This document shows, one piece after another, positions 7,107 through 20,245 of a DNA stretch of 30,104 nt. Position 1 is the first letter of the stretch; the number at the start of each line of letters is the position of its first letter. Source of the DNA: Clostridia bacterium (GTDB lineage Bacteria; Bacillota; Clostridia; Oscillospirales; CAG-272); contig JAKSVJ010000001.1 in the NCBI GenBank assembly GCA_024408015.1, positions 1 to 30,104 of the forward strand, written 5' to 3'. The notes under the pieces were generated by a model. The model worked only from the letters and a program-made list of their open reading frames with translations, did not search any database and was not told where the DNA came from. A program made the position numbers and the translations under genes.

Positions 7107-7685
7107 ATGAATAAGAATAGAAAAATAGTAACATCTATTTTGGAATTAATAGAGATAATGTCCATGTCTATTGTGGTAGTAATATTGGTTTTCACTTTCA
7201 TAGGAAGATTGTCAACAGTAGATGGTTCATCTATGAACAATACGCTAACTGATGGTGATAGAGTAATAATTACAAATCTCTTTTATACACCACAAAATGG
7301 AGACATAATTGTTTTCCAACAAGCTGATGGATATTATAAAATTCCGCTAGTAAAAAGAGTCATTGCAAAAGGCGGAGACACTTTGAGAATCGATTTTTCT
7401 TCTTGGAAAGTTTACGTTAATGGTGAACTTGTTGATGAGCCTTACGTGAATAAGGATATGTTTAATTCAATGAAATCAGAAGACTATTTTTCGGTATACA
7501 AACAGTATTTAGATGTAACAGGAACAATGACAATTCCTGAAGGATATGTATTTGCTATGGGTGATAATAGAAATCATTCAAGTGATAGTAGATACGAGGG
7601 TGTAAAATTGGTAAGCGTTAACGATATTATGGGCAAATTAATTTTGCGTATAGCTCCGATTAGCGAATTTGGAAAGGTTGATTAA
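7107..7685 (+). CDS. lepB: Signal peptidase I
   Basis: N-terminal transmembrane segment, GSSM (catalytic Ser), VKRVI (catalytic Lys), MGDNRNHSSDSR. Confidence 0.96.
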   Translation: MNKNRKIVTSILELIEIMSMSIVVVILVFTFIGRLSTVDGSSMNNTLTDGDRVIITNLFYTPQNGDIIVFQQADGYYKIPLVKRVIAKGGDTLRIDFSSWKVYVNGELVDEPYVNKDMFNSMKSEDYFSVYKQYLDVTGTMTIPEGYVFAMGDNRNHSSDSRYEGVKLVSVNDIMGKLILRIAPISEFGKVD

Positions 7686-7687
7686 AA

Positions 7688-8560
7688 ATGCCGACGGATA
7701 TTATTCAATGGTTTCCTGGACATATGGCGAAAACTCGCCGTATGATTACAGAAAACTTAAAACTTGTTGATGTTGTTTTTGAATTATTGGATGCTAGAAT
7801 TCCATATTCATCACAAAACCCAGAAATACCGAAATTAACTTCAGGAAAACCTAGACTCACTTTGTTGTCTAAAACATCATTAGCAGATCCAAAAGTAACT
7901 GCAAGATGGCAAGAGTATTACCAGAGTGTTGGAAGAAAATGCATATTCTATGATGTAAGAACAGGCGAAGGTCTAGATAAAATTGGTCCTGCGGTTAATG
8001 AATTGTGTGCGGATAAATTGGCCAAATACAAGGAGAAGGGCATGATAAGACCTCTTAAGGCTATGATTGTTGGTATTCCTAATGTTGGCAAGAGCTCATT
8101 GATTAACAAAATAGCAACTGACAAAAAAGCTAAAGTTGAAGATAGACCTGGTGTCACAAAAGATATGCAATGGGTTAAGACTTCATATGGAATTGACCTT
8201 ATGGATATGCCAGGTGTTTTATGGCCAAAATTCGAAGAGAGAAGAGTTGGCGAAAACCTAGCAATGACTGGCGCTGTTAAGGATGAAATTACTGAACTTG
8301 AGTCATTGGCTGGTGCACTATGCAAGAGACTTTACGAGATATATCCAGAACTTCTTTGTCAAAGATACAAGCTTGAAATGTCTGAACTTGAAGACCTTGA
8401 AATATGGCAAATTTTCGAGTTGATTGGCAAAAAAAGAGGCTTCTTAATTTCTGGCGGCGAAATTAATTACGACAGAACTGCAAGAATGCTTCTTGATGAG
8501 TTTAGATCAGGAAAAATAGGTAGAATCACACTTGAAGTTCCTGGAGGCAAACATGCTTGA
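7688..8560 (+). CDS. rbgA: Ribosome biogenesis circularly permuted GTPase RbgA/YlqF
   Basis: IQWFPGHMAK, LDARIPYSS, GIPNVGKSSLIN (G1), PGVT (G2), DMPG (G3), EFRSGKIGRITLE. Confidence 0.96.
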   Translation: MPTDIIQWFPGHMAKTRRMITENLKLVDVVFELLDARIPYSSQNPEIPKLTSGKPRLTLLSKTSLADPKVTARWQEYYQSVGRKCIFYDVRTGEGLDKIGPAVNELCADKLAKYKEKGMIRPLKAMIVGIPNVGKSSLINKIATDKKAKVEDRPGVTKDMQWVKTSYGIDLMDMPGVLWPKFEERRVGENLAMTGAVKDEITELESLAGALCKRLYEIYPELLCQRYKLEMSELEDLEIWQIFELIGKKRGFLISGGEINYDRTARMLLDEFRSGKIGRITLEVPGGKHA

Positions 8561-9149
8561 TTTTTCATTTGAAAATGAATGTAAAGAGCAAGGATATGTT
8601 TCAATTTGTGGTATTGACGAAGCAGGAAGAGGACCTTTAGCTGGAAATGTAGTTGCAGCCGCAGTAATTATGCCTGAAGGATTTTTACCAGAGGGTTTAA
8701 ATGATTCAAAAAAGATAAGCCCTAAAAAAAGAGAAAAATTGTACGATATAATTACAGCCAATTGTATATGGTCAGTTGGAGAAGCAACACCAGCGGAAAT
8801 AGATGAGTACAATATACTCAATGCAACTATGCTTGCTATGAATAGAGCGGTCGAAGGTCTATCTCAGAAAGCGGACTTTGCTTTGATTGATGGCAATTGC
8901 TCTCGTGGTTTTAAAATACCGACAAAGACGGTTGTAAGTGGAGATGCAAAAGTACCGTCTATTGCAGCCGCTTCAATTATTGCAAAAGTTACAAGGGATA
9001 GAGAGTGTCTTGAACTTGATGCTAAATATCCAGAATATGGATTTGCAAAGCATAAAGGTTACCCTACTGCAGAACATATGAACAAGGTTAGGGAACTTGG
9101 TCCTTGTAGTGAATATAGAATGAGTTTTCTCTCATTCTTAAAAAAATAG
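8553..9149 (+). CDS. rnhB: Ribonuclease HII
   Basis: GIDEAGRGPLAG, DSKK, LIDG, SIAAASIIAKVTRD. Start moved to ATG 8553, which follows GGAGG at 8543-8547. Confidence 0.96.
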   Translation: MLDFSFENECKEQGYVSICGIDEAGRGPLAGNVVAAAVIMPEGFLPEGLNDSKKISPKKREKLYDIITANCIWSVGEATPAEIDEYNILNATMLAMNRAVEGLSQKADFALIDGNCSRGFKIPTKTVVSGDAKVPSIAAASIIAKVTRDRECLELDAKYPEYGFAKHKGYPTAEHMNKVRELGPCSEYRMSFLSFLKK

Positions 9150-9182
9150 AAATAACAAAGAAAACTAAGAAAAGGAGGAGAA

Positions 9183-9917
9183 ATGGCACTATACGTTATT
9201 GGTGATCTTCATCTATCATTTTCAACCGAAAAGCCGATGGATATATTCGGTAGTAGATGGGATAACTACATGGTAAAAATAGAGACCGAGTGGAAAAAAG
9301 TAGTTAAACCAGAGGATACAGTGGTGATAGCTGGTGATGTATCATGGGCTATGACAAACGAGGAATTAAAACCTGATTTTGATTTCATCGAATCTCTTCC
9401 TGGTACTAAGATTATATTAAAAGGCAACCATGATTATTGGTGGCAAACAATGACTAAGCTTCAAGCTTTCGTAAAAGAGAATGAATATAAAACAATAAAC
9501 TTTTTGCACAATAATGCTTATGAAGTTGAAGATTTCATCATCTGCGGAACAAGAGGGTGGTACAACGATGACAAAGCGACTCCAATAAGAGGAGCTGATA
9601 GCATGAAGATTGTTGCAAGAGAAGTTGAAAGAATAAAGCATAGCGTGGCTTGTGGAAAACAACTTATAGAAGAATCCGGAAAGCAAAAAGAAATGCTTAT
9701 GTTCTTGCATTTTCCGGCAATCTTCAAGGGGTATATGTGTGACGAGATTATTGCAGAGATATATAAAGCTGGAATAGAGCGTTGTTACTATGGTCACATA
9801 CATGGGAACTATGAAGCTAGGGATACAATTAATTATGCGGATATTGATTTCAAGTTGATTTCTGCTGACTACCTATTGTTTAAACCAGAGCTCATTGAAC
9901 CCAAATTGCAAAACTAG
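9183..9917 (+). CDS. Calcineurin-like metallophosphoesterase
   Basis: GDLH, GDVSW, GNHD, HFP and GHIH metal-binding motifs in the expected order; strong AGGAGG RBS. Confidence 0.9.
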   Translation: MALYVIGDLHLSFSTEKPMDIFGSRWDNYMVKIETEWKKVVKPEDTVVIAGDVSWAMTNEELKPDFDFIESLPGTKIILKGNHDYWWQTMTKLQAFVKENEYKTINFLHNNAYEVEDFIICGTRGWYNDDKATPIRGADSMKIVAREVERIKHSVACGKQLIEESGKQKEMLMFLHFPAIFKGYMCDEIIAEIYKAGIERCYYGHIHGNYEARDTINYADIDFKLISADYLLFKPELIEPKLQN

Positions 9918-9980
9918 TTTAACAAAGACACAAAAAGCCCAAAATACTAGAAAACAAGCACGAAAATGAGCATTTTTCGT

Positions 9981-10009
9981 TTGACATTATTGATTTCTAG
10001 TGTTATAAT
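9981..10009 (+). promoter_or_regulatory. Consensus SigA promoter with extended -10 for tig-clpP-clpX
   Basis: TTGACA (9981-9986), 17-nt spacer ending in TGT, TATAAT (10004-10009). Confidence 0.9.
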
Positions 10010-10044
10010 TACATTCGCGTAAAAATATCTATTCGGAGGATACG

Positions 10045-11478
10045 ATGGAACTATTAAATGTAAAAGATATCGCAACAAACAAAAAAGAACTGGAAATAAA
10101 GATTGACAAAGCTGCTTTTGACGTAGAAGTTAATAAAGCATACAAAAAGAATGTTGGTAGTATCAATATTCCAGGATTCAGAAAAGGTAAAGCTCCAAAG
10201 AGCGTTATCGAAAAAATCTATGGTAAGGGTGTATTCTACGAAGATGCAATCAATGCTCTCCTTCCAGAAGCTTATGATGCTGCTGTTAAAGAAGCAAAAT
10301 TGGATGTTGTATCTCGTCCAGAAATCGATATTAAGAATATTGATGATGCAGGCGTAGTTGTAACAGCTCAGGTTTTCGTTAAACCTACAGTAACAGTTAC
10401 AGAATACAAAGGTCTCAAAGCAACAAGAGACAATGTTGAAATCACAGATGAAGCAGTTGATGCTGAAATTCAGAAGGTTATCAAACGTAATGCTAGAGTT
10501 ATCGATGTAGTCGATCGTGCTGCTAAGACAGGCGACGAAGTTGTATTTGACTTCGATGGTTATGTTGATGGCAAACAGTTCAATGGTGGTAAGGCTGAAA
10601 AGTACAACCTTAAATTAGGTTCAGGTCAGTTCATCCCTGGTTTTGAGGATCAGATGGTTGGCAAAAACATCGGTGAAAACTTTGATGTTAATGTTACATT
10701 CCCAGCTGACTATCAGGAAGCTACATTGGCTGGTAAAGAAGCTACATTCAAATGCTTAATTCACGAAATCAAGGAAGAAGAACTTCCTGAATTCAATGAA
10801 GATTTCGTTAAAGATGTTTCCGAATTCGACACAGTTGAAGATTATAAAGCTGACACAAAGAAGAAACTCGAAGCTGATGCAAACAAAGCTGCAGATGCTA
10901 AACTTGACGAAGCACTTATGGATATGCTCGTTGAAAAACTCGAAGGCGAAATTCCAGAATGCATGTACGAAAACGAAGTTGAAAATCAGATTTCTGATTA
11001 CGAAAATCGTCTACGTTACCAGGGTCTCAAACTTGAAGACTTCATGAAATATACAGGTCAAACAATTGACACTCTCAAGACACAGTTCCGTCCACAGGCT
11101 GAAAAACAGGTTAAGACAAGACTTGCTCTTGAATATGTAGTTGCTACAGAATCAATCGTTCCAACAGCTGATGAAGTTGAAGAAGAATATAAGAAGATTG
11201 CTGAAGCTTACGGCATGGAAGTTGAAAAAGTTAAAGAAGCTATCGACGTTGAAGCTATCACAAAAGATGTTGCAGTAGGAAAAGCTGTTGCATTTGTTCG
11301 TGAAAATGCTACAGTTTCTGGCGCTAAGAAAGCTGCAAAAAAGACAACAAAGAAAAAAGCAGCTGAACCAGCTGAAGCTCCTGCAGAAGCTACTGAAGCA
11401 ACAGAAGAAAAGCCAGCTCCAAAGAAGACTACAAGAAAGTCAACAAAGAAAGCTGCTGACACAGAAGAAAGCAAATAA
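10045..11478 (+). CDS. tig: Trigger factor with a low-complexity C-terminal tail
   Basis: Ribosome-binding IPGFRKGKAP, FKBP domain (FDGYVDGKQF...GSGQFIPGFEDQ), codon usage typical of highly expressed genes. Confidence 0.97.
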   Translation: MELLNVKDIATNKKELEIKIDKAAFDVEVNKAYKKNVGSINIPGFRKGKAPKSVIEKIYGKGVFYEDAINALLPEAYDAAVKEAKLDVVSRPEIDIKNIDDAGVVVTAQVFVKPTVTVTEYKGLKATRDNVEITDEAVDAEIQKVIKRNARVIDVVDRAAKTGDEVVFDFDGYVDGKQFNGGKAEKYNLKLGSGQFIPGFEDQMVGKNIGENFDVNVTFPADYQEATLAGKEATFKCLIHEIKEEELPEFNEDFVKDVSEFDTVEDYKADTKKKLEADANKAADAKLDEALMDMLVEKLEGEIPECMYENEVENQISDYENRLRYQGLKLEDFMKYTGQTIDTLKTQFRPQAEKQVKTRLALEYVVATESIVPTADEVEEEYKKIAEAYGMEVEKVKEAIDVEAITKDVAVGKAVAFVRENATVSGAKKAAKKTTKKKAAEPAEAPAEATEATEEKPAPKKTTRKSTKKAADTEESK

Positions 11479-11483
11479 TATTG

Positions 11484-11516
11484 TTGGGGTTCGCAGACGA
11501 GAGTCTGCGAATTCAA
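11484..11516 (+). other. Intergenic GNRA-capped stem-loop without a U-tract (putative mRNA processing/stabilising element)
   Basis: TTCGCAGAC-GAGA-GTCTGCGAA (11490-11511), extendable by G-U pairs and TTG/CAA. Confidence 0.65.
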
Positions 11517-11546
11517 TTAATTGGGAAACTAATAGGAGGTTAGTAT

Positions 11547-12131
11547 ATGCCACTAGTACCATATGTAATTGATAAGACAGGAATGGGTGAACGTTCATAC
11601 GATATCTATTCCAGATTGTTGAATGATAGAATTGTGTTCTTGGCTGACGAGGTTAATGACACAACAGCTTCATTAGTAGTAGCTCAGTTACTCTATCTTG
11701 AGGCTCAAGATCCAGACAAGGATATTAGCTTGTATATTAATAGTCCAGGTGGTTCAATATCAGCCGGAATGGCAATATATGATACAATGAACTTCATCAA
11801 GTGTGATGTTTCAACAATTTGTATTGGCATGGCTGCTTCAATGGGAGCATTCCTTCTTGCAGCTGGTCAAAAAGGCAAGAGATATGCACTTCCTAATAGT
11901 GAAATCATGATTCACCAGCCTTTGGGTGGTACACAGGGTCAAGCTAGCGACATTAAGATTCAAGCTGAACATATCTTGAAAATCCGTAATAGAATGAACA
12001 CTATACTCGCAGAAAAGACAGGTAAGAGTATTGAAGAGATTGAAGTTGCAACAGATAGAGACAATTGGCTTGATGCTAATGCAGCAGTTGAATATGGATT
12101 GATTGATAAGGTTATAGATAAGAGAATTTAA
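11547..12131 (+). CDS. clpP: ATP-dependent Clp protease proteolytic subunit
   Basis: [21 protein letters not shown] (Ser), MIHQP (His), TDRD (Asp). Confidence 0.99.
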
Positions 12132-12140
12132 GGAAGTTTT

Positions 12141-13358
12141 ATGGCCACAAAAAAGAATGACACATCAAAGTTTTGTGCTTTTTGCGGTATGACCGAAAAA
12201 GAAGTACCATTACTTATTCCGTCACCAATGAATGTATATATATGTAGTAATTGTATTGATACATACAATACACTCATAAATGATTATGTTGATAAAAGCA
12301 ACGAGGAACCTGACAGTGAACCTGCTGATTTGCCAAAACCAAATGAGATCAAAAAGACTCTCGATGAGTATGTAATCGGACAGAATGATGCAAAGATCGC
12401 TCTTGCTGTTGAAGTGTATAACCATTACAAGAGAATCTCACAGAAGAAGAACAAGAAAAAAAGTGATAACGATGTTGAAATTCAAAAGAGCAATGTTTTG
12501 CTTTTAGGACCAACTGGTGTTGGTAAGACCTATCTTGCTCAAGTTTTGGCTAAATCTCTTCAAGTTCCATTTGCTATCGCAGATGCTACAACATTAACAG
12601 AGGCTGGATATGTCGGAGAAGACGTAGAGAATATTCTTCTAAGACTTATTCAAGCTGCTGATTTTGATGTTGATAAGGCGGAACATGGTATTATATATAT
12701 TGATGAAATCGACAAAATTTCAAGAAAGAGCGAAAACCGCTCGATAACAAGAGACGTTTCAGGTGAAGGTGTACAACAGGCATTGCTTAAAATACTTGAA
12801 GGTACAGTTGCCAATGTTCCTCCTCAGGGTGGACGTAAGCATCCAAATCAAGACTTTATACAGATAAACACTGAGAACATCTTGTTTATTTGTGGAGGCG
12901 CTTTCGACGGTCTTTCTGAAATAATTGAAAAACGTAATGGTAATCAAACAATCGGCTTTGGTGGGGAAGTTAAAACTAAAGCTGAAAAGACAAAGACAGG
13001 TATTTATGAGGGTGTAACAGCTCATGATATTGTTAAATACGGTATCATACCTGAACTTGTTGGTAGATTGCCAGCGATTGTTGCTCTTGAACAATTAGAT
13101 GAAGAAGCTTTGAGAAGAATCCTTCTTGAACCAAAGAATTCACTCATTAAACAATACAAGAAATTGTTTGAAATGGATGGAATTAAGCTTGAGTTTACTG
13201 ATGCAGCGTTATCAAAGATTGCAAAACTTGCTCTTGATAGAGGTACTGGTGCTAGAGGCTTAAGGTCAATAATGGAGAATTTTATGATTCCTATTATGTA
13301 TGAAGCTCCATCATCTGGCAAAACAGAGATAACAATTGACGAAAAAGATGTAATTTAA
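12141..13358 (+). CDS. clpX: Clp protease ATP-binding subunit ClpX
   Basis: N-terminal C4 zinc finger (CAFC...CSNC), [32 protein letters not shown] loop, TGARGLR. Confidence 0.98.
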
Positions 13359-13360
13359 GA

Positions 13361-13391
13361 AAAAAGCTCGAGATATATTCTCGGGCTTTTT
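13361..13391 (+). terminator. Intrinsic terminator after clpX
   Basis: AAAAAGCTCGAGA-TATAT-TCTCGGGCTTTTT hairpin followed by a T-run. Confidence 0.85.
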
Positions 13392-13426
13392 AAAAATAGA
13401 AGCACAAATAGAAATACGAGGCCAAT

Positions 13427-14425
13427 ATGTTAGTAAAGGACATTGATTTTAAAATTCCAAGTGTGGCAAATTCCACAGGTGCAGTCTTTCAAAATCCTAT
13501 GACTCAACTTAATACAGCTGATCCAACAATTATTTATGATGATGTTCGTCAAGTATGGTATGCTGTAACCACAGGAGACAAAACTATCCTACTTCATAGA
13601 GCTAAGACTTTTGAAAAACTATTTCATGAGGAAGAAAAGATTATCTACGAAGCAAGAGATGAGGATGGTGTATATGGATATATTTGGGCACCTGAATTAC
13701 ATTTTGTTGATGGTCATTGGTATATCTACACTAGCACTCATGAAAAAGATAACAACAATAGAAAGCATTTGACCGTATATAGCGCCAAAACTGATGACCC
13801 GTGGGATGGGTTTGACTTTGCTGCTCATATAAATCCGAGTGTTTTTGCAATTGACCCAACTGTGGCAAGATTGAGCATAAATGGAAAACTATATATTTGT
13901 TTTTCATACGTTAGAGGACAGCAATTAATTGCAATTCAAGAAATGAAATCGCCAACAGAAGTTGTAGGCGAATTTTCTGTTATTGCTCAAGCTACATATC
14001 CTTGGGAGTTGGTGCCTCCGAATGACACAAACAAAATAAATGAAGGTGCATTTTTTGTTGAAAACCAGGGAAGAACATTCATAGTATATTGTGGTAATGG
14101 ATGTTGGAACAACGATTATGTTTTTGGCATATTGGAGCTTGTTGGTGATGATCCACTTAATCCAGATCATTGGGTAAAAGACGAGGTACCACTATTTACA
14201 AAAGGTAATGGATGTTATGGTCCAGGACATGGAACGTTCTTCTATTCTCCGGATAAGTCAGAACTCTGGATAGCATATCATTGCTTGCACGAATTTAATC
14301 CTGATAACTCTCCAATGGTGCGCCATTGCAACGCACAAAGAGTATATTTCGATTCTACTGGTTTCCCGCATATAGGACTTCCAACAGAACGCAACGTAAA
14401 TATACCAGTTCCGTCAAATAAATAA
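13427..14425 (+). CDS. Glycoside hydrolase family 43 (probable alpha-L-arabinofuranosidase/xylosidase), no signal peptide
   Basis: Five-bladed propeller motifs ADP (base Asp), WAPE, AIDPT (pKa-modulator Asp), INEG (acid Glu), GPGH. Confidence 0.9.
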   Translation: MLVKDIDFKIPSVANSTGAVFQNPMTQLNTADPTIIYDDVRQVWYAVTTGDKTILLHRAKTFEKLFHEEEKIIYEARDEDGVYGYIWAPELHFVDGHWYIYTSTHEKDNNNRKHLTVYSAKTDDPWDGFDFAAHINPSVFAIDPTVARLSINGKLYICFSYVRGQQLIAIQEMKSPTEVVGEFSVIAQATYPWELVPPNDTNKINEGAFFVENQGRTFIVYCGNGCWNNDYVFGILELVGDDPLNPDHWVKDEVPLFTKGNGCYGPGHGTFFYSPDKSELWIAYHCLHEFNPDNSPMVRHCNAQRVYFDSTGFPHIGLPTERNVNIPVPSNK

Positions 14426-14430
14426 AAACG

Positions 14431-14477
14431 AAATAAAAGCAGCTATAAGCCTATAGAACTCATAGCTGCTTTTATTT
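14431..14477. terminator. Bidirectional intrinsic terminator shared by GH43 (+) and the 65-aa ORF (-)
   Basis: Perfect 16-bp inverted repeat AAATAAAAGCAGCTAT (14431-14446) / ATAGCTGCTTTTATTT (14462-14477), giving T-runs on both strands. Confidence 0.85.
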
Positions 14478-14507
14478 ATGTTGATTTGAGAAGAATAGAA
14501 AACTAAA

Positions 14508-14705
14508 TTAAACTCTTGCTGTTGCTTTAGATTGTTTTAAAGCTCTATAAGCAAGAGGAGAGTATAAATCACACTTTTGATCGAGTTTGACAGCACGATG
14601 TCTTCTATCGAGCATCATTTCATTGATGTTGCTTCCGTAGATATCATCATTCTTTAATTCATATGTGCGTACGATGCATCCTGCAATATATTCGATCTGT
14701 TCCAT
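14508..14705 (-). CDS. 65-aa orphan small protein divergent from the XRE/S24 repressor
   Basis: ATG preceded by a GAGAGGT RBS, a consensus promoter about 35 nt upstream and a terminator about 30 nt downstream. No family recognised. Confidence 0.75.
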   Translation of the reverse strand: MEQIEYIAGCIVRTYELKNDDIYGSNINEMMLDRRHRAVKLDQKCDLYSPLAYRALKQSKATARV

Positions 14706-14740
14706 GTTATTTTACCTCTCGCGGTTGATTTTGTGAGTGC

Positions 14741-14769
14741 ATTATAACACTGCAAGGTAAAACTGTCAA
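14741..14769 (-). promoter_or_regulatory. Perfect-consensus SigA promoter with extended -10 for the 65-aa ORF
   Basis: On the minus strand, TTGACA (14769-14764), a 17-nt spacer ending in TGT, then TATAAT (14746-14741). Confidence 0.88.
14745..14760. promoter_or_regulatory. Putative operator O-L inside the -35/-10 spacer of the leftward promoter
   Basis: TAACACTGCAAGGTAA matches the palindrome TTACCTTGCAAGGTAA at 13/16; its last 10 nt are identical to O-R. Confidence 0.65.
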
Positions 14770-14773
14770 TAGC

Positions 14774-14809
14774 ATTTTATAAAAAAATATAAAATTTTAT
14801 AAAAAAATA
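14774..14809. repeat. A-tract direct repeat, 2 x 16 nt, 20-nt period
   Basis: ATTTTATAAAAAAATA at 14774-14789 and again at 14794-14809. Confidence 0.8.
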
Positions 14810-14818
14810 GAAAAACAC

Positions 14819-14847
14819 TTTACAATAGTATAAACTTGTGGTAATAT
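14819..14847 (+). promoter_or_regulatory. SigA-type promoter with extended -10 for the repressor gene
   Basis: TTTACA (14819-14824), a 17-nt spacer ending in TGG, then TAATAT (14842-14847). Confidence 0.65.
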
Positions 14848-14863
14848 TTACCATGCAAGGTAA
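14848..14863. promoter_or_regulatory. Putative operator O-R over the predicted +1 of the repressor promoter
   Basis: TTACCATGCAAGGTAA is 15/16 to a perfect palindrome. Confidence 0.7.
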
Positions 14864-14884
14864 TAATTTTAAGGTGGACTCATT

Positions 14885-15607
14885 ATGACATGGTTAGAAA
14901 ACATCAAAAGAATTAAAAAAATGAAGGGTTGGACAAACGATGACCTTTGTACAAAGTCAGAATTATCTCTTGGTACAATAAACAAGTTGTTTGCTGGACA
15001 AAGTGAAGATCCAAAACTCTCAACATTGATGCAGTTAGCAAAAGCTTTTGATATGCCTTTAGATGAGATGCTCGGACTAAGAGAGAATGATCCTTCTAAC
15101 ATGATGGATCCTGATCTTCTTAAAAAATATGTCGAACTCGATAAGGCAGGTAGAGAAACTGTCGATTATATAATAAATAAGGAATATAAAAGAATCTTAG
15201 ATGAAAAAAGAGCTCAGCCATATTCACTTGATGCAAGAAATATAAAGAAAATTAAGTTGTTTGAAATTTCTGCATCTGCGGGTACTGGCATATACTTGTC
15301 AGATTGTAAGAGCGAAGATATACCTGTGTTCCTTAATCCGATTACCGAGGCTGCTGATTTCGCTGTTAGAGTTAGAGGCGATAGTATGATGCCAAAATAC
15401 AAAGACGGTGATATTATTCTTGCAGAACAAGCTGACCAAGTTGATGAAGGTGAACTTGGACTATTCTCACTAAATGGAGAAGGCTACTTCAAGAAGTTTG
15501 GTGGAGATTGTCTTATCTCTTTAAATCCTCAATACGAAGATATAGACATAACCCCTTATGATGATTTGCACTGCTTTGGTAGAGTAGTTGGTAGATTGAA
15601 AAAATGA
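14885..15607 (+). CDS. XRE/cI-type HTH plus S24 peptidase self-cleaving repressor (HdiR/cI-like, not winged-helix LexA)
   Basis: N-terminal HTH (TNDDLCTKSELSLGTINKL...DPKLSTLMQLAKAF). Ala132-Gly133 in ASAGTG, Ser167 in VRGDSM, Lys204 in YFKK. The A-to-S (35) and S-to-K (37) spacings equal those of E. coli LexA (A84/S119/K156). Confidence 0.92.
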   Translation: MTWLENIKRIKKMKGWTNDDLCTKSELSLGTINKLFAGQSEDPKLSTLMQLAKAFDMPLDEMLGLRENDPSNMMDPDLLKKYVELDKAGRETVDYIINKEYKRILDEKRAQPYSLDARNIKKIKLFEISASAGTGIYLSDCKSEDIPVFLNPITEAADFAVRVRGDSMMPKYKDGDIILAEQADQVDEGELGLFSLNGEGYFKKFGGDCLISLNPQYEDIDITPYDDLHCFGRVVGRLKK

Positions 15608-15612
15608 TTTTT

Positions 15613-15641
15613 AGAGTGGTGTGAGAGCACCACTCTTTTTT
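15613..15641 (+). terminator. Intrinsic terminator after the repressor
   Basis: AGAGTGGTG-TGAGAG-CACCACTCT followed by a T-run. Confidence 0.85.
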
Positions 15642-15695
15642 GGCACTCACGACATGGCAAATGAAAAAAATAGATTATTTTTTTGCAAAAAGATA

Positions 15696-15724
15696 TTGAT
15701 TTTTTATTTTGTTTAGTGTAAAAT
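15696..15724 (+). promoter_or_regulatory. SigA promoter for groESL
   Basis: TTGATT (15696-15701), 17-nt spacer, TAAAAT (15719-15724), directly upstream of CIRCE. Confidence 0.65.
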
Positions 15725-15734
15725 AAGCACAAAG

Positions 15735-15761
15735 TTAGCACTTGGGAACACTGAGTGCTAA
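15735..15761. promoter_or_regulatory. CIRCE element (HrcA operator)
   Basis: TTAGCACTT-N9-GAGTGCTAA, one mismatch to the consensus TTAGCACTC-N9-GAGTGCTAA, upstream of groES. Confidence 0.95.
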
Positions 15762-15809
15762 AAAATAAATAAGTAAATTTTTAATGTATATATACATGGA
15801 GGTACAAAA

Positions 15810-16097
15810 ATGAAACTTACACCTTTATATGACAGAGTAGTAGTTAAAATGGTAGAAGTTGAAGAAACAACAAAGAGTGGTATCATTCTCACCGCTTCTG
15901 CTAAAGAGAAACCACAGGTAGCTGAAGTTATCGCTGTTGGCGATGGTTCTGCTCACGACGGTGGTGATAACGTTAAAGTTTTTGTTAAACCAGGCGACAA
16001 AGTAATTGTATCAAAATATGCTGGAACAGAAGTTAAACTTGACGGAGAAGAATTTATCGTTGTAAATATGGGCGATATTCTCGCAATCGTTGGTTAA
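15810..16097 (+). CDS. groES: Co-chaperonin GroES
   Basis: MKLTPLYDRVVVK, mobile loop TKSGIILT, VIAVG, DILAIV. Confidence 0.99.
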   Translation: MKLTPLYDRVVVKMVEVEETTKSGIILTASAKEKPQVAEVIAVGDGSAHDGGDNVKVFVKPGDKVIVSKYAGTEVKLDGEEFIVVNMGDILAIVG

Positions 16098-16108
16098 TAA
16101 ATAATTAG

Positions 16109-17755
<1,647 letters not shown>

Positions 17756-17797
17756 TCAACAAGCTCATCAACTAAGTATTAAAAATTATTAAGATTT

Positions 17798-17834
17798 AAG
17801 GGTATTTCATCAAAAAAATACCCTTTTCTTTTTT
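17798..17834 (+). terminator. Intrinsic terminator after groEL
   Basis: AAGGGTATTT...AAATACCCTT hairpin followed by TTCTTTTTT. Confidence 0.8.
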
Positions 17835-17865
17835 GATTTTTGCTCATTTGAGAAAACTAAGAATC

Positions 17866-17894
17866 TTGCAATTGAATTGATATTGTTGTATAAT
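17866..17894 (+). promoter_or_regulatory. SigA promoter upstream of uxaC
   Basis: TTGCAA (17866-17871), 17-nt spacer, TATAAT (17889-17894). Confidence 0.75.
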
Positions 17895-17932
17895 GAAAAA
17901 TAATGGATATTTATGCAAAGAAGGGTATTAAT

Positions 17933-19378
17933 ATGAAGAAATTTCTTGATGACAATTTTTTAATTGATAATGAAATTGGAGAGCTTTTGTACGAGAATTA
18001 TGCAAAAGATATGCCAATTATCGACTATCACTGTCATGTAAACCCAGCAGAGATCGCTGATAACAAAAAGTATAAAAATATTACAGAGGTGTGGCTCGGC
18101 GGTGATCACTACAAATGGCGTGCTATGCGTTCTTGTGGCATTCCTGAAAGAGTTATTACAGGCAATTCAACAGATGAAGAAAAATTCAAAGCGTTCTGTT
18201 CTGCAATGCCTTATCTCATAGGAAATCCAATGTACCATTGGTCACATTTGGAATTGAAGAGATACTTTGATTATGATGGCATCATTTGCCCTGAAAACAG
18301 TGATGAAATTTGGAAATTAACACAAGAAAAATTAGCTGAAGATAGCATGAGCGTTCGTGGCATCATTTCAAGATCAAATGTTGCACTTTTGTGTACAACT
18401 GATGATCCTGCTGACGATTTGGCTAACCATATTAAAATTGCAGAGGACAAATCCTTCACAACAAAAGTATTGCCTGCATTCAGACCAGACAATGCGATGA
18501 AAATTCAAAAACCAGGTTTCAAAGCATATATTGAAAAGCTTTCAGCTGTAGTTGGTGTTGAAATCAAGGATTTCAAGACACTTGGTGATGTATTAGCTAG
18601 TAGAATTCAATACTTTAATGTTCTTGGCTGTAAAACAGCTGACCATGGTATGGATGACTATTATCTCTATGATGGAAGTGTACCTAGTGGACAAGCTCTT
18701 TCTATTGCCGATGCTGCTTTCAAGAAAGCAATGAGAGGTGAAGACGTTCCTAATGACCTTGCATTGGTATATAGAAGCGCAATGATTAAGGTTCTTGCTT
18801 CTGAGTACACAAAGTACGGTTGGGTTATGCAACTTCACATGGGAGTTCTCCGTAATACAAACTCTATTATGTTTGCAAATCATGGAGCAGACTTTGGCTA
18901 CGATACAATAGGTTCATTCTCAATTAAGTCATTGGCAGAATTGCTTGATGCTTTGGATAGAGAAGGTATTCTTCCTAAGACTGTTCTTTATTCAATTAAT
19001 CCTAATGACAATGCTGCTCTTGCAACATTGATTGGCTGCTTCCAACACACAAGTGAAGAGAGTGAAGGCCTTAACAATATGATGAAGATCCAACATGGTT
19101 CAGCATGGTGGTTCAATGATAATAAGAATGGTATGACAGCACAACTTGAGAATCTCGGTAACTTGTCAGCTCTTGGCAAATTTATCGGTATGCTCACAGA
19201 CTCAAGAAGCTTCTTATCATACACAAGACACGAATATTTCCGTAGAGTTCTTTGTAATGTTTTGGGTGGATACGTTGAACGTGGAGAATATCCATGTGAT
19301 ATCGAAACACTCGCTCAAATGGTATGTGATATTTGTTACAACAATACAAAAGATTATTTTGGATTTAACAATATCTAA
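17933..19378 (+). CDS. uxaC: Uronate (glucuronate/galacturonate) isomerase
   Basis: PIIDYHCH, WLGGDHYKWRAMR, NPMYHWSHLELKR, CTTDDP, WWFND, MLTDSRSFLSY. Start moved to ATG 17933 (MKKFLDDNFL), which follows AAGGGT. Confidence 0.96.
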   Translation: MKKFLDDNFLIDNEIGELLYENYAKDMPIIDYHCHVNPAEIADNKKYKNITEVWLGGDHYKWRAMRSCGIPERVITGNSTDEEKFKAFCSAMPYLIGNPMYHWSHLELKRYFDYDGIICPENSDEIWKLTQEKLAEDSMSVRGIISRSNVALLCTTDDPADDLANHIKIAEDKSFTTKVLPAFRPDNAMKIQKPGFKAYIEKLSAVVGVEIKDFKTLGDVLASRIQYFNVLGCKTADHGMDDYYLYDGSVPSGQALSIADAAFKKAMRGEDVPNDLALVYRSAMIKVLASEYTKYGWVMQLHMGVLRNTNSIMFANHGADFGYDTIGSFSIKSLAELLDALDREGILPKTVLYSINPNDNAALATLIGCFQHTSEESEGLNNMMKIQHGSAWWFNDNKNGMTAQLENLGNLSALGKFIGMLTDSRSFLSYTRHEYFRRVLCNVLGGYVERGEYPCDIETLAQMVCDICYNNTKDYFGFNNI

Positions 19379-19390
19379 GAGGTAATTAAA

Positions 19391-20245
19391 ATGGCAAATG
19401 AAGAAAAAGTAAATTCTAGTGAATGTACTCATAACTGTTCAACTTGTTCACAAAGTTGTTCATCAAAGCCACAATTCGCAGAATTAAATAAAATGAGTAA
19501 AGTTGGCAAAGTTATTGCAGTTGTAAGTGGTAAGGGTGGCGTTGGTAAGTCAATGGTATCATCTTTGCTTTCTGCAGAGCTTGCACGTCGTAATCATAAG
19601 GTAGCTATCATGGATGCTGATATTACAGGTCCATCAATTCCAAAGGCCTTCGGACTTCATGATTTATGCATGACTGCTCCTCTTGGTGGTATTCTTCCAC
19701 AGACAACAAGCACAGGAATTGAAGTAATGAGTATCAATCTTCTCATCGAAGATGAAACAGCTCCAGTTGTATGGAGAGGACCAGTTATTGCTGGAACAGT
19801 TAAGCAGTTCTGGACAGATGTAGTTTGGGGTGGAGTAGATACAATGGTTATCGACTGTCCTCCAGGAACAGGTGACGTTCCACTAACAGTATTCCAGTCA
19901 ATTCCAGTTGATGGCATCATCATAGTAACATCTCCACAGGATCTTGTTTCAATGATTGTAACAAAAGCTGTTAATATGGCTAACTTGATGAAGATACCAG
20001 TAATTGGTCTTGTAGAAAACATGAGCTACATTAAGTGTCCTGATTGCGGAAAAGAAATCAAGGTGTTTGGTGAGAGTGGAGTTGATGCTATCGCTGAAAA
20101 ATATGGTATTCCTGTACTTGCTAGAATGCCTATTGATCCAAATCTCACAGCTCTTTGTGACAAAGGTATGATTGAATCTGCTGATGTTGATTATATTACA
20201 CCTGTAGCAGAAGCAGTAGAAAACGTAGTTCCAAGAGTAAAATAG
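19391..20245 (+). CDS. mrp: Mrp/NBP35 (ApbC) Fe-S cluster carrier ATPase
   Basis: GKGGVGKS, DADITGPS, PVVWRGP, DCPPGTGD, GLVENMS..CPDC; N-terminal CTHNCSTCSQSC. Confidence 0.94.
   Translation: MANEEKVNSSECTHNCSTCSQSCSSKPQFAELNKMSKVGKVIAVVSGKGGVGKSMVSSLLSAELARRNHKVAIMDADITGPSIPKAFGLHDLCMTAPLGGILPQTTSTGIEVMSINLLIEDETAPVVWRGPVIAGTVKQFWTDVVWGGVDTMVIDCPPGTGDVPLTVFQSIPVDGIIIVTSPQDLVSMIVTKAVNMANLMKIPVIGLVENMSYIKCPDCGKEIKVFGESGVDAIAEKYGIPVLARMPIDPNLTALCDKGMIESADVDYITPVAEAVENVVPRVK

Follow-up and report, generated by a model that had tools for sequence, protein, structure and literature searches.

What is the role of a repressor of the self-cleaving S24 type that is encoded, among housekeeping genes, back to back with a protein of only 65 amino acids? 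The gene pair in question is found in a contig of Clostridia bacterium (JAKSVJ010000001.1, assembly GCA_024408015.1). The window analyzed here is this whole contig, 30,104 nucleotides long, which is part of a 1.45-Mb metagenome-assembled genome (MAG; G000) with a completeness of 63.8%. An initial annotation had proposed a chromosomal, non-phage and probably damage-inducible switch, in which a repressor with an XRE-type helix-turn-helix (HTH) and an S24 domain faces one small gene across operator-bearing promoters. The reading preferred here, with a probability of roughly 60%, is that of a vertically inherited, self-contained two-gene S24 switch, which would be triggered by stress and would have the small protein as its sole local output.

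The domains and catalytic residues of the repressor are established by computation. Profile searches find an HTH_3 domain at its N terminus (residues 7-61, 32.4 bits) and a Peptidase_S24 domain at its C terminus (PF00717, residues 129-235, 70.7 bits with a cut-off of 23.3). Homologues are counted in hundreds; the nearest are 42-66% identical, 236-250 amino acids long and almost all metagenomic. In an alignment of 24 homologues, S131-A132-G133-T134-G135, a G-(D/N)-S167-M motif and K203 are invariant, which bears out the architecture first proposed, an XRE-HTH/S24 repressor whose cleavage site and Ser/Lys dyad are intact. Among the individual residues initially named as LexA-like, Ala132-Gly133 and Ser167 stand, while the lysine had been placed at Lys204, one position too far: K204 is replaced by Q in several of the 24 sequences, and in the HMMER alignment the catalytic pair of UmuD, a Ser and a Lys, is matched by S167 and K203. 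Because K203 is both invariant and aligned to the catalytic Lys of UmuD, it is taken as the catalytic lysine, which sets the Ser-Lys spacing at 36 and not 37. The sequence after the scissile bond begins with GTG, as in IrvR from Streptococcus mutans and in HdiR. Judged by its domain, cleavage site, dyad and the operators at its own promoter, the repressor is a member of the LexA-like (S24) superfamily of self-cleaving proteins, self-cleavage itself being predicted. It is not a LexA, since the canonical model TIGR00498 covers only its S24 part and scores 24.3-24.7 bits, far under the cut-off of 110.95, and its N-terminal domain is an XRE HTH and not the winged helix of LexA.

The second element of the switch is the region between the two genes, where four operator positions (O1 to O4) can be laid out (Table 1). 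Operators were compared over about 20 orthologous upstream regions from MAGs of Acutalibacteraceae, oriented on the repressor start, and in these loci the repressor is seen to face one small gene across the same operator-bearing promoters. The promoters themselves were located computationally. A perfect or near-perfect TTGACA-17-TATAAT precedes the divergent small gene in the orthologous loci, in agreement with the perfect consensus claimed for the leftward promoter of the window, and the TTTACA position of the repressor promoter is conserved as well. The 16-mer assigned at first to the spacer of the leftward promoter (O2) does lie inside this promoter, but it overlaps two bases of the -10 element and is thus not wholly in the spacer; its counterpart at the rightward promoter (O4) was correctly placed over the predicted transcript start, directly after the -10 TAATAT.

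The operator consensus TTACC-N6-GGTAA, initially derived from this locus, is supported and extended by positional conservation across the orthologous loci. In 12 of 14 orthologues the TTACC of O1 keeps the same distance from the -35 element, O2 takes the form (C)TACC-N6-GGTA(A/T) in the same promoter spacer, and the two sites are 33 bp apart wherever both can be read. Sites equivalent to O4 directly follow the repressor -10 element in several loci, including L011 and L038, and locus L013 holds three near-perfect copies of TTACC(G/A)TTTTCGGTAA, at spacings of 33 and 31 bp. In more distant relatives the layout is the same, but the sites are of the TTCCG...CGGAA type. In the window, O1 and O2 are both shifted by 2 nt with respect to the promoter while their 33-bp spacing is intact, and such a joint shift fits a putative cooperative binding on one helix face. 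Relatives carry O3 between both promoters, commonly as TTACCG-N4-ATATAA; in the window, the tandem duplication found at this position may be a decayed O3 or a tract resembling an UP element. The clustering is also apparent in numbers: the 10-mer TGCAAGGTAA, common to the two 16-mers first proposed as operators, occurs twice in the window where 0.09 copies are expected, three matches to TTACC-N6-GGTAA with up to two mismatches fall inside 152 bp, and 14 orthologous upstream regions contain 44 TTACC/GGTAA pentamers, compared with 5.9 +/- 2.4 in shuffled sequences (maximum 16).

Could the repressor govern genes beyond its own locus? Exact and 1-2-mismatch sites of the TTACC-N6-GGTAA and TACC-N6-GGTA types were searched for in the window's own genome and three related genomes (G001, G003 and G028), with the reversed pattern as a control. 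The motif is not enriched over this control (10 vs 22 in G001, 29 vs 26 in G003, 24 vs 28 in G028). The exact consensus is present once in the 1.45-Mb assembly, as O4, and all further TACC-N6-GGTA sites (seven) and 10-mer copies (four) in that assembly fall inside open reading frames. Its non-coding sites with up to two mismatches have no association with repair genes, and the upstream regions of recA and lexA in G001 and G003 contain no TTACC-type site. Two candidates were discarded on inspection, a site with two mismatches at 135 bp from uvrB that is the spacer of a neighboring gene's promoter, and a pair of sites in contig C24 of G028 that has no promoter context. The option of a regulon master, left open by the initial annotation, is therefore not upheld by the scans, according to which the repressor, in a genome 64% complete, is a predicted local switch.

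A further reading takes the locus either as the head of a broader SOS-like regulon, standing in for LexA, or as a decayed, functionless immunity region of a prophage. What speaks for the first half is that a check of the own genome, with its 64%-complete assembly, did not recover a chromosomal lexA. The only LexA-like gene there (contig C275; L002 52-2118) reaches 158 bits, is 32-42% identical to the LexA of relatives and adjoins a gene for a PriCT_2 primase C-terminal protein; for these two reasons it was rejected as the canonical LexA of the genome and probably comes from a mobile element, either a plasmid or a prophage. Against a replacement of LexA, a canonical LexA of 195-210 bits is encoded alongside the XRE-S24 repressor in five of five relatives tested, and the missing enrichment in four genomes and the bare recA and lexA upstream regions point the same way. 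A palindrome, CAAACAAATGTTTG, is conserved just upstream of the lexA promoter in G002, G003 and G001 (loci L042, L043 and L044) and is likely the LexA box of the genus, distinct from the TTACC-type operators. The separateness from LexA that had been suggested for this circuit is thus borne out by its relatives, which have both the canonical protein and a different candidate box.

The other half of that reading, a prophage remnant, draws on phage repressors with the same architecture, which reach up to 33% identity. Among 50,697 phage records, however, the best repressors do not exceed this value, compared with 42-66% among the orthologues. The gene order small gene (minus strand), repressor (plus), Na:Ala symporter (minus), groES and groEL is shared by G001, G002 and G003, which belong to the same genus, and by three further lineages whose repressors are 55-63% identical; in a more distant group (48-51% identity) the pair is found among other housekeeping genes. 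The flanking genes scanned in the window (7107-20245) include neither an integrase nor a phage gene, and genes of phages or integrative and conjugative elements are likewise not seen near the pairs of the relatives. The chromosomal, non-phage character of the unit and its synteny across relatives, the latter set out as a check by the initial annotation, are confirmed by this order in six other lineages among housekeeping neighbors. Together with the invariance of the catalytic residues and the conservation of partner and operators over 42-66% identity, the synteny led to the rejection of the decayed prophage. Taken as a whole, then, the double reading of a functionless remnant or a LexA substitute is very improbable. 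Gene order indicates instead that the pair is a core-genome unit with vertical inheritance, although the repressor, to judge by its sequence, may well be an ancient phage repressor that was co-opted.

The output of the switch would be the 65-amino-acid protein, which matched no family in Pfam, NCBIfam, PHROG or PADLOC. Its open reading frame is a real gene, because it is conserved as a protein together with the repressor in seven orthologues (40-56% identity, 14 invariant residues). The invariant residues include C10, D20, Y23, S25, I27-N28-E29, L32, R34 and S49, and a conserved stretch, KNDDIYGSNINE, adds to a hairpin and two basic helices. The AlphaFold2 model places a beta-hairpin at residues 3-14, followed by a loop and helices at 27-48 and 50-64. 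A profile search over 1.84 billion representatives found four true relatives; a fifth match, a 3711-amino-acid repeat protein with 29 weak repeats, was rejected as spurious. On this evidence the small-protein family is confined to the genus of the window and its neighbors.

In sister genera, the gene at the same position encodes a protein of 97-119 amino acids with an N-terminal hairpin, E-I-I-x-G-C-x-V-Y-x-Y, followed by two transmembrane (TM) helices, and one lineage has a 64-amino-acid partner with a single TM segment. By profile-profile comparison, the hairpin of the window protein and that of the two-TM partners are homologous (hhalign probability 94%, E 1.2e-7). The protein itself has no TM segment, with a maximum 19-residue hydropathy of 0.04 compared with 2.2-2.6 in the partners of relatives. 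Sequence comparison thus places it, as an anchor-less and predicted soluble form, in a family of small effectors that would have a cytoplasmic hairpin in common; as a protein it is undescribed, and it appears to have lost the membrane anchor present in its relatives. Further away, repressor homologues at 35-44% identity (L012-L017) face membrane proteins of 89-128 amino acids with the same promoter and operator layout. In these partners, which may constitute a small-protein family of their own, a shared G-G-(M/I)-E-x-G motif immediately precedes the final hydrophobic stretch.

The membrane-bound homologues bear on a quite different view of the small protein, as a Cro-like or antirepressor partner that would feed back on the repressor or its operators to form a bistable switch, with the real output elsewhere. 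Several operators between divergent promoters do mirror the cI/Cro arrangement, and in Acinetobacter the small co-regulator DdrR is encoded divergently from UmuDAb (PMC7273328). However, the homologues found as partners in sister genera are integral to the membrane, with two TM helices, which argues against a DNA-binding role; neither an HTH nor any other DNA-binding domain is detected in the small protein, and no other operator-bearing promoter was found in its own or the related genomes, all of which makes a Cro-like partner improbable. Hardly better placed is a phage-defense or abortive-infection module, in which DNA damage by a phage or a phage antirepressor would remove the repressor and the small protein, membrane-active in relatives, would arrest or kill the infected cell. 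Such a module would suit the phage-type repressor (which matches phrog_4 with an E of 4e-36 and, weakly, the HTH of CapH), an effector tightly repressed behind a consensus promoter, and the small two-TM partners of relatives. It sits poorly with a locus that has a stable, syntenic place in the core genome and not in a variable defense island, with small proteins that have no PADLOC match, and with an effector that is predicted to be soluble in the window.

For the local, stress-triggered switch, what we infer on the binding and cleavage of the repressor, on its signal and on the function of the effector is as follows. Dimers of the repressor would bind the operators of the TTACC-N6-GGTAA type. 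O2, over the spacer and the -10 element, and O1, in the leader, are 33 bp apart on one DNA face and would jointly silence a sigma-70 promoter of consensus strength, while O4, over the repressor's own transcription start, would provide negative autoregulation. A stress signal, the likeliest being filaments of RecA on single-stranded DNA (RecA-ssDNA) after DNA damage, would induce self-cleavage at A132-G133 by the S167/K203 dyad, and housekeeping proteases would then clear the DNA-binding fragment, leading to strong expression of the small gene. The working part of the small protein would be the conserved cytoplasmic N-terminal beta-hairpin, tethered by two TM helices in sister genera and followed by basic helices in the window protein. 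Most likely, the protein would bind a cellular target and bring growth or division to a pause, in the manner of YneA, SosA and SidA. This arrest of growth or division is the favored effector role, if weakly so, since it is drawn by analogy and is weakened further by the absent TM segment.

A more specific, and rather doubtful, proposal is that the hairpin E-I-x-G-C-x-V-Y-x-Y defines a new family of stress-induced effectors of Oscillospirales that bind a core machine, such as a component of the divisome or of cell-wall synthesis, and that the soluble form of 60-68 amino acids would point to the hairpin, and not the anchor, as the active part. If this were true, it would amount to a minimal peptide inhibitor under the control of a second, LexA-independent self-cleaving repressor.

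The signal is the step for which a competing account has the most to offer. RecA-ssDNA is the default trigger in the S24 superfamily, and most characterized S24 repressors depend on RecA. The same architecture could nevertheless work without RecA, through cleavage that is constitutive or that answers a non-genotoxic stress (heat, acid, oxidative or proteotoxic), with the repressor level set by proteolysis. IrvR, which like HdiR has the AGTG cleavage-site sequence of the window repressor, autocleaves without RecA (PMC7101444), and PrlP from S. suis answers acid, oxidative and osmotic stress as well as heat (PMC12273997), so that DNA damage need not be the signal. The conserved linkage to groESL, in the window also to clpPX, and the presence in relatives of a separate canonical LexA that already covers the SOS response are further arguments for this account. 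On the other side, apart from the RecA dependence of most of the superfamily, the proximity of chaperone genes may reflect no more than an inherited gene order, and groES has a CIRCE element of its own and no TTACC-type site. RecA-independent cleavage is accordingly possible, although on balance unlikely.

The examples of IrvR and PrlP weigh against a damage-triggered switch, and several other points count against the preferred reading of the locus. O3 is degenerate in the genome of the window, and with an assembly only 63.8% complete, extra targets have possibly been missed. The model of the small protein is of low confidence (predicted local distance difference test, pLDDT, 68), and no usable match for the protein was returned by searches of the ESM Atlas by features, of the Protein Data Bank (PDB) with Foldseek, or of the Atlas by shape. 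Its lack of a TM segment sets it apart from YneA, SosA and SidA, the membrane-anchored SOS inhibitors of division from Gram-positive bacteria and Caulobacter (PMC9578287). Finally, the sequencing runs that contain the sequence of the locus are DNA runs only.

Table 1. Features of the two-gene locus and its operator region (window coordinates)
Feature	Position	Strand	Description
Operator O1	14712..14727		TTACCTCTCGCGGTTG; 5' leader of the small gene, about +8 to +23; overlaps the ribosome-binding site on DNA; predicted
Operator O2	14745..14760		TAACACTGCAAGGTAA; spacer and edge of the -10 element, small-gene promoter; predicted
O3 position	14769..14808		AT-rich 20-nt tandem duplication (90% identical); degenerate TTATA-N6-TATAA at 14777-14792
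Operator O4	14848..14863		TTACCATGCAAGGTAA; perfect TTACC-N6-GGTAA after the -10 element, over the predicted repressor transcript start; predicted
Small-gene promoter	14741..14769	-	-35 TTGACA 14764-14769, 17-nt spacer, -10 TATAAT 14741-14746, extended -10 TG; 12/12 consensus
Repressor promoter	14819..14847	+	TTTACA-17-TAATAT with TG
Small-gene ribosome-binding site	14714..14720	-	GAGAGGT, inside O1; read from the sequence
Small gene	14508..14705	-	Open reading frame, 65 amino acids
Repressor gene (XRE-HTH + S24)	14885..15607	+	Open reading frame, 240 amino acids
Terminator of the small gene, also 3' of the GH43 gene (+)	14431..14477		Hairpin, 20-pair stem, T tail on the minus strand
Intrinsic terminator of the repressor gene	15613..15636	+	Hairpin

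The two back-to-back transcription units, each with its own terminator, are present as first annotated, in a window of unremarkable base composition. The location between clpPX and groESL, in the absence of phage genes, was likewise correctly described: the upstream flank holds the trigger factor gene, clpP, clpX and a GH43 gene, the last of them between clpX and the pair, and the downstream flank holds groES-groEL, uxaC and others. The proximity to clpX differs elsewhere, and in the one contig of a relative that also contains this gene (that of P0012), clpX is found on the other side of groEL. The symporter gene that separates the repressor from groES in relatives (L030, L038, L049 and L052) is absent from window positions 15607-15810, and the comparison of gene orders suggests that it was simply lost. 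Upstream of groES, at 15735-15761, the window has a near-consensus CIRCE element, TTAGCACTT-N9-GAGTGCTAA, the operator of HrcA. With this element and no TTACC-type site, groESL would be under its own heat-shock control. In the Apopatosoma-like group (L051 9001-10634), the repressor gene overlaps the downstream gene of an AAA_21/AAA_15 ATPase by 4 nt, apparently forming an operon.

The kind of module represented by this pair is already known from LexA/YneA, IrvR/IrvA, FddR, PrtR/PrtN and UmuDAb/DdrR, and current concepts are unchanged by the locus. What appears particular to it, from its sequence and those of its relatives, is the soluble variant of the effector, a clear map of four operator positions, the coexistence with LexA and the conserved linkage to groESL. 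Self-contained units built on S24 repressors are thought to be the building blocks of SOS-like networks (PMC13148647), and the window provides a clean and deeply conserved example with a single effector, from gut Clostridia that are abundant but uncultured. The locus offers a testable operator model and cleavage mutants, and a comparison of the soluble effector with its membrane-anchored relatives could reveal the role of these widespread small proteins.

Among the known systems, lambda cI/Cro, PrtR/PrtN and UmuDAb/DdrR resemble the window pair in having a self-cleaving repressor, divergent promoters, phased operators, autoregulation and a single adjacent primary target. The window differs from them in lacking a prophage, an HTH partner of the Cro type and genes for pyocins or polymerases. 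The pairs lexA-yneA from Bacillus and Listeria and lexA-sosA from Staphylococcus also place an S24 repressor divergent from a small gene under strong repression, whose product halts division upon damage (PMC9578287), and YneA and SosA, as small membrane proteins, are similar to the partners found in sister genera. The window differs from these pairs by the XRE HTH of its repressor, by the lack of a regulon, and by a small protein that has neither a TM segment nor LysM.

HdiR from Lactococcus and Streptococcus was among the comparisons first made for this locus. According to PMC9578287, which cites Savijoki 2003, HdiR depends on RecA and ClpP, is inducible by heat and damage, and governs a small regulon made up of error-prone polymerases, in a family without LexA. 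The likeness holds for the domain architecture (XRE-HTH and S24) and the AGTG cleavage motif; it does not extend to the targets or to the LexA background, since no umuC-type or other Y-family polymerase cassette is present at the locus, where the neighbors are the small open reading frame, GH43, and groES or the Na:Ala symporter, and since LexA is found in the relatives. IrvR/IrvA from Streptococcus mutans is also similar, being a core-genome system with an XRE-HTH and S24 repressor, an adjacent gene as primary target and an A|GTG site (PMC7101444, PMC5742171), and the Ser-Lys spacing is 36 in both (S224/K260 in IrvR, S167/K203 in the window). IrvR itself is cleaved independently of RecA, and the irvA mRNA has a partly regulatory role (PMC7101444, PMC5742171); the partner proteins of the two systems are unrelated.

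By description, the window pair can also be likened to FddR from Francisella, a chromosomal phage-type S24 repressor that is autoregulated through a palindromic operator, faces a divergent gene without known function and has a network of very small size; the same paper describes S24 regulators of this kind as "self-contained divergently transcribed units" (PMC13148647). FddR belongs to a genus that lacks a functional canonical LexA, and its binding site is GTG-N11-CAC, whereas the window pair is found in a lineage with LexA, has predicted operators of the TTACC-N6-GGTAA type and is completed by a 65-amino-acid hairpin protein. What both have in common is the self-contained divergent unit with a minimal network, and the window pair presents all the elements of the FddR type: a chromosomal repressor of phage type, a divergent gene, a shared promoter region bearing the operators, conservation within the lineage, and a network reduced to a minimum.

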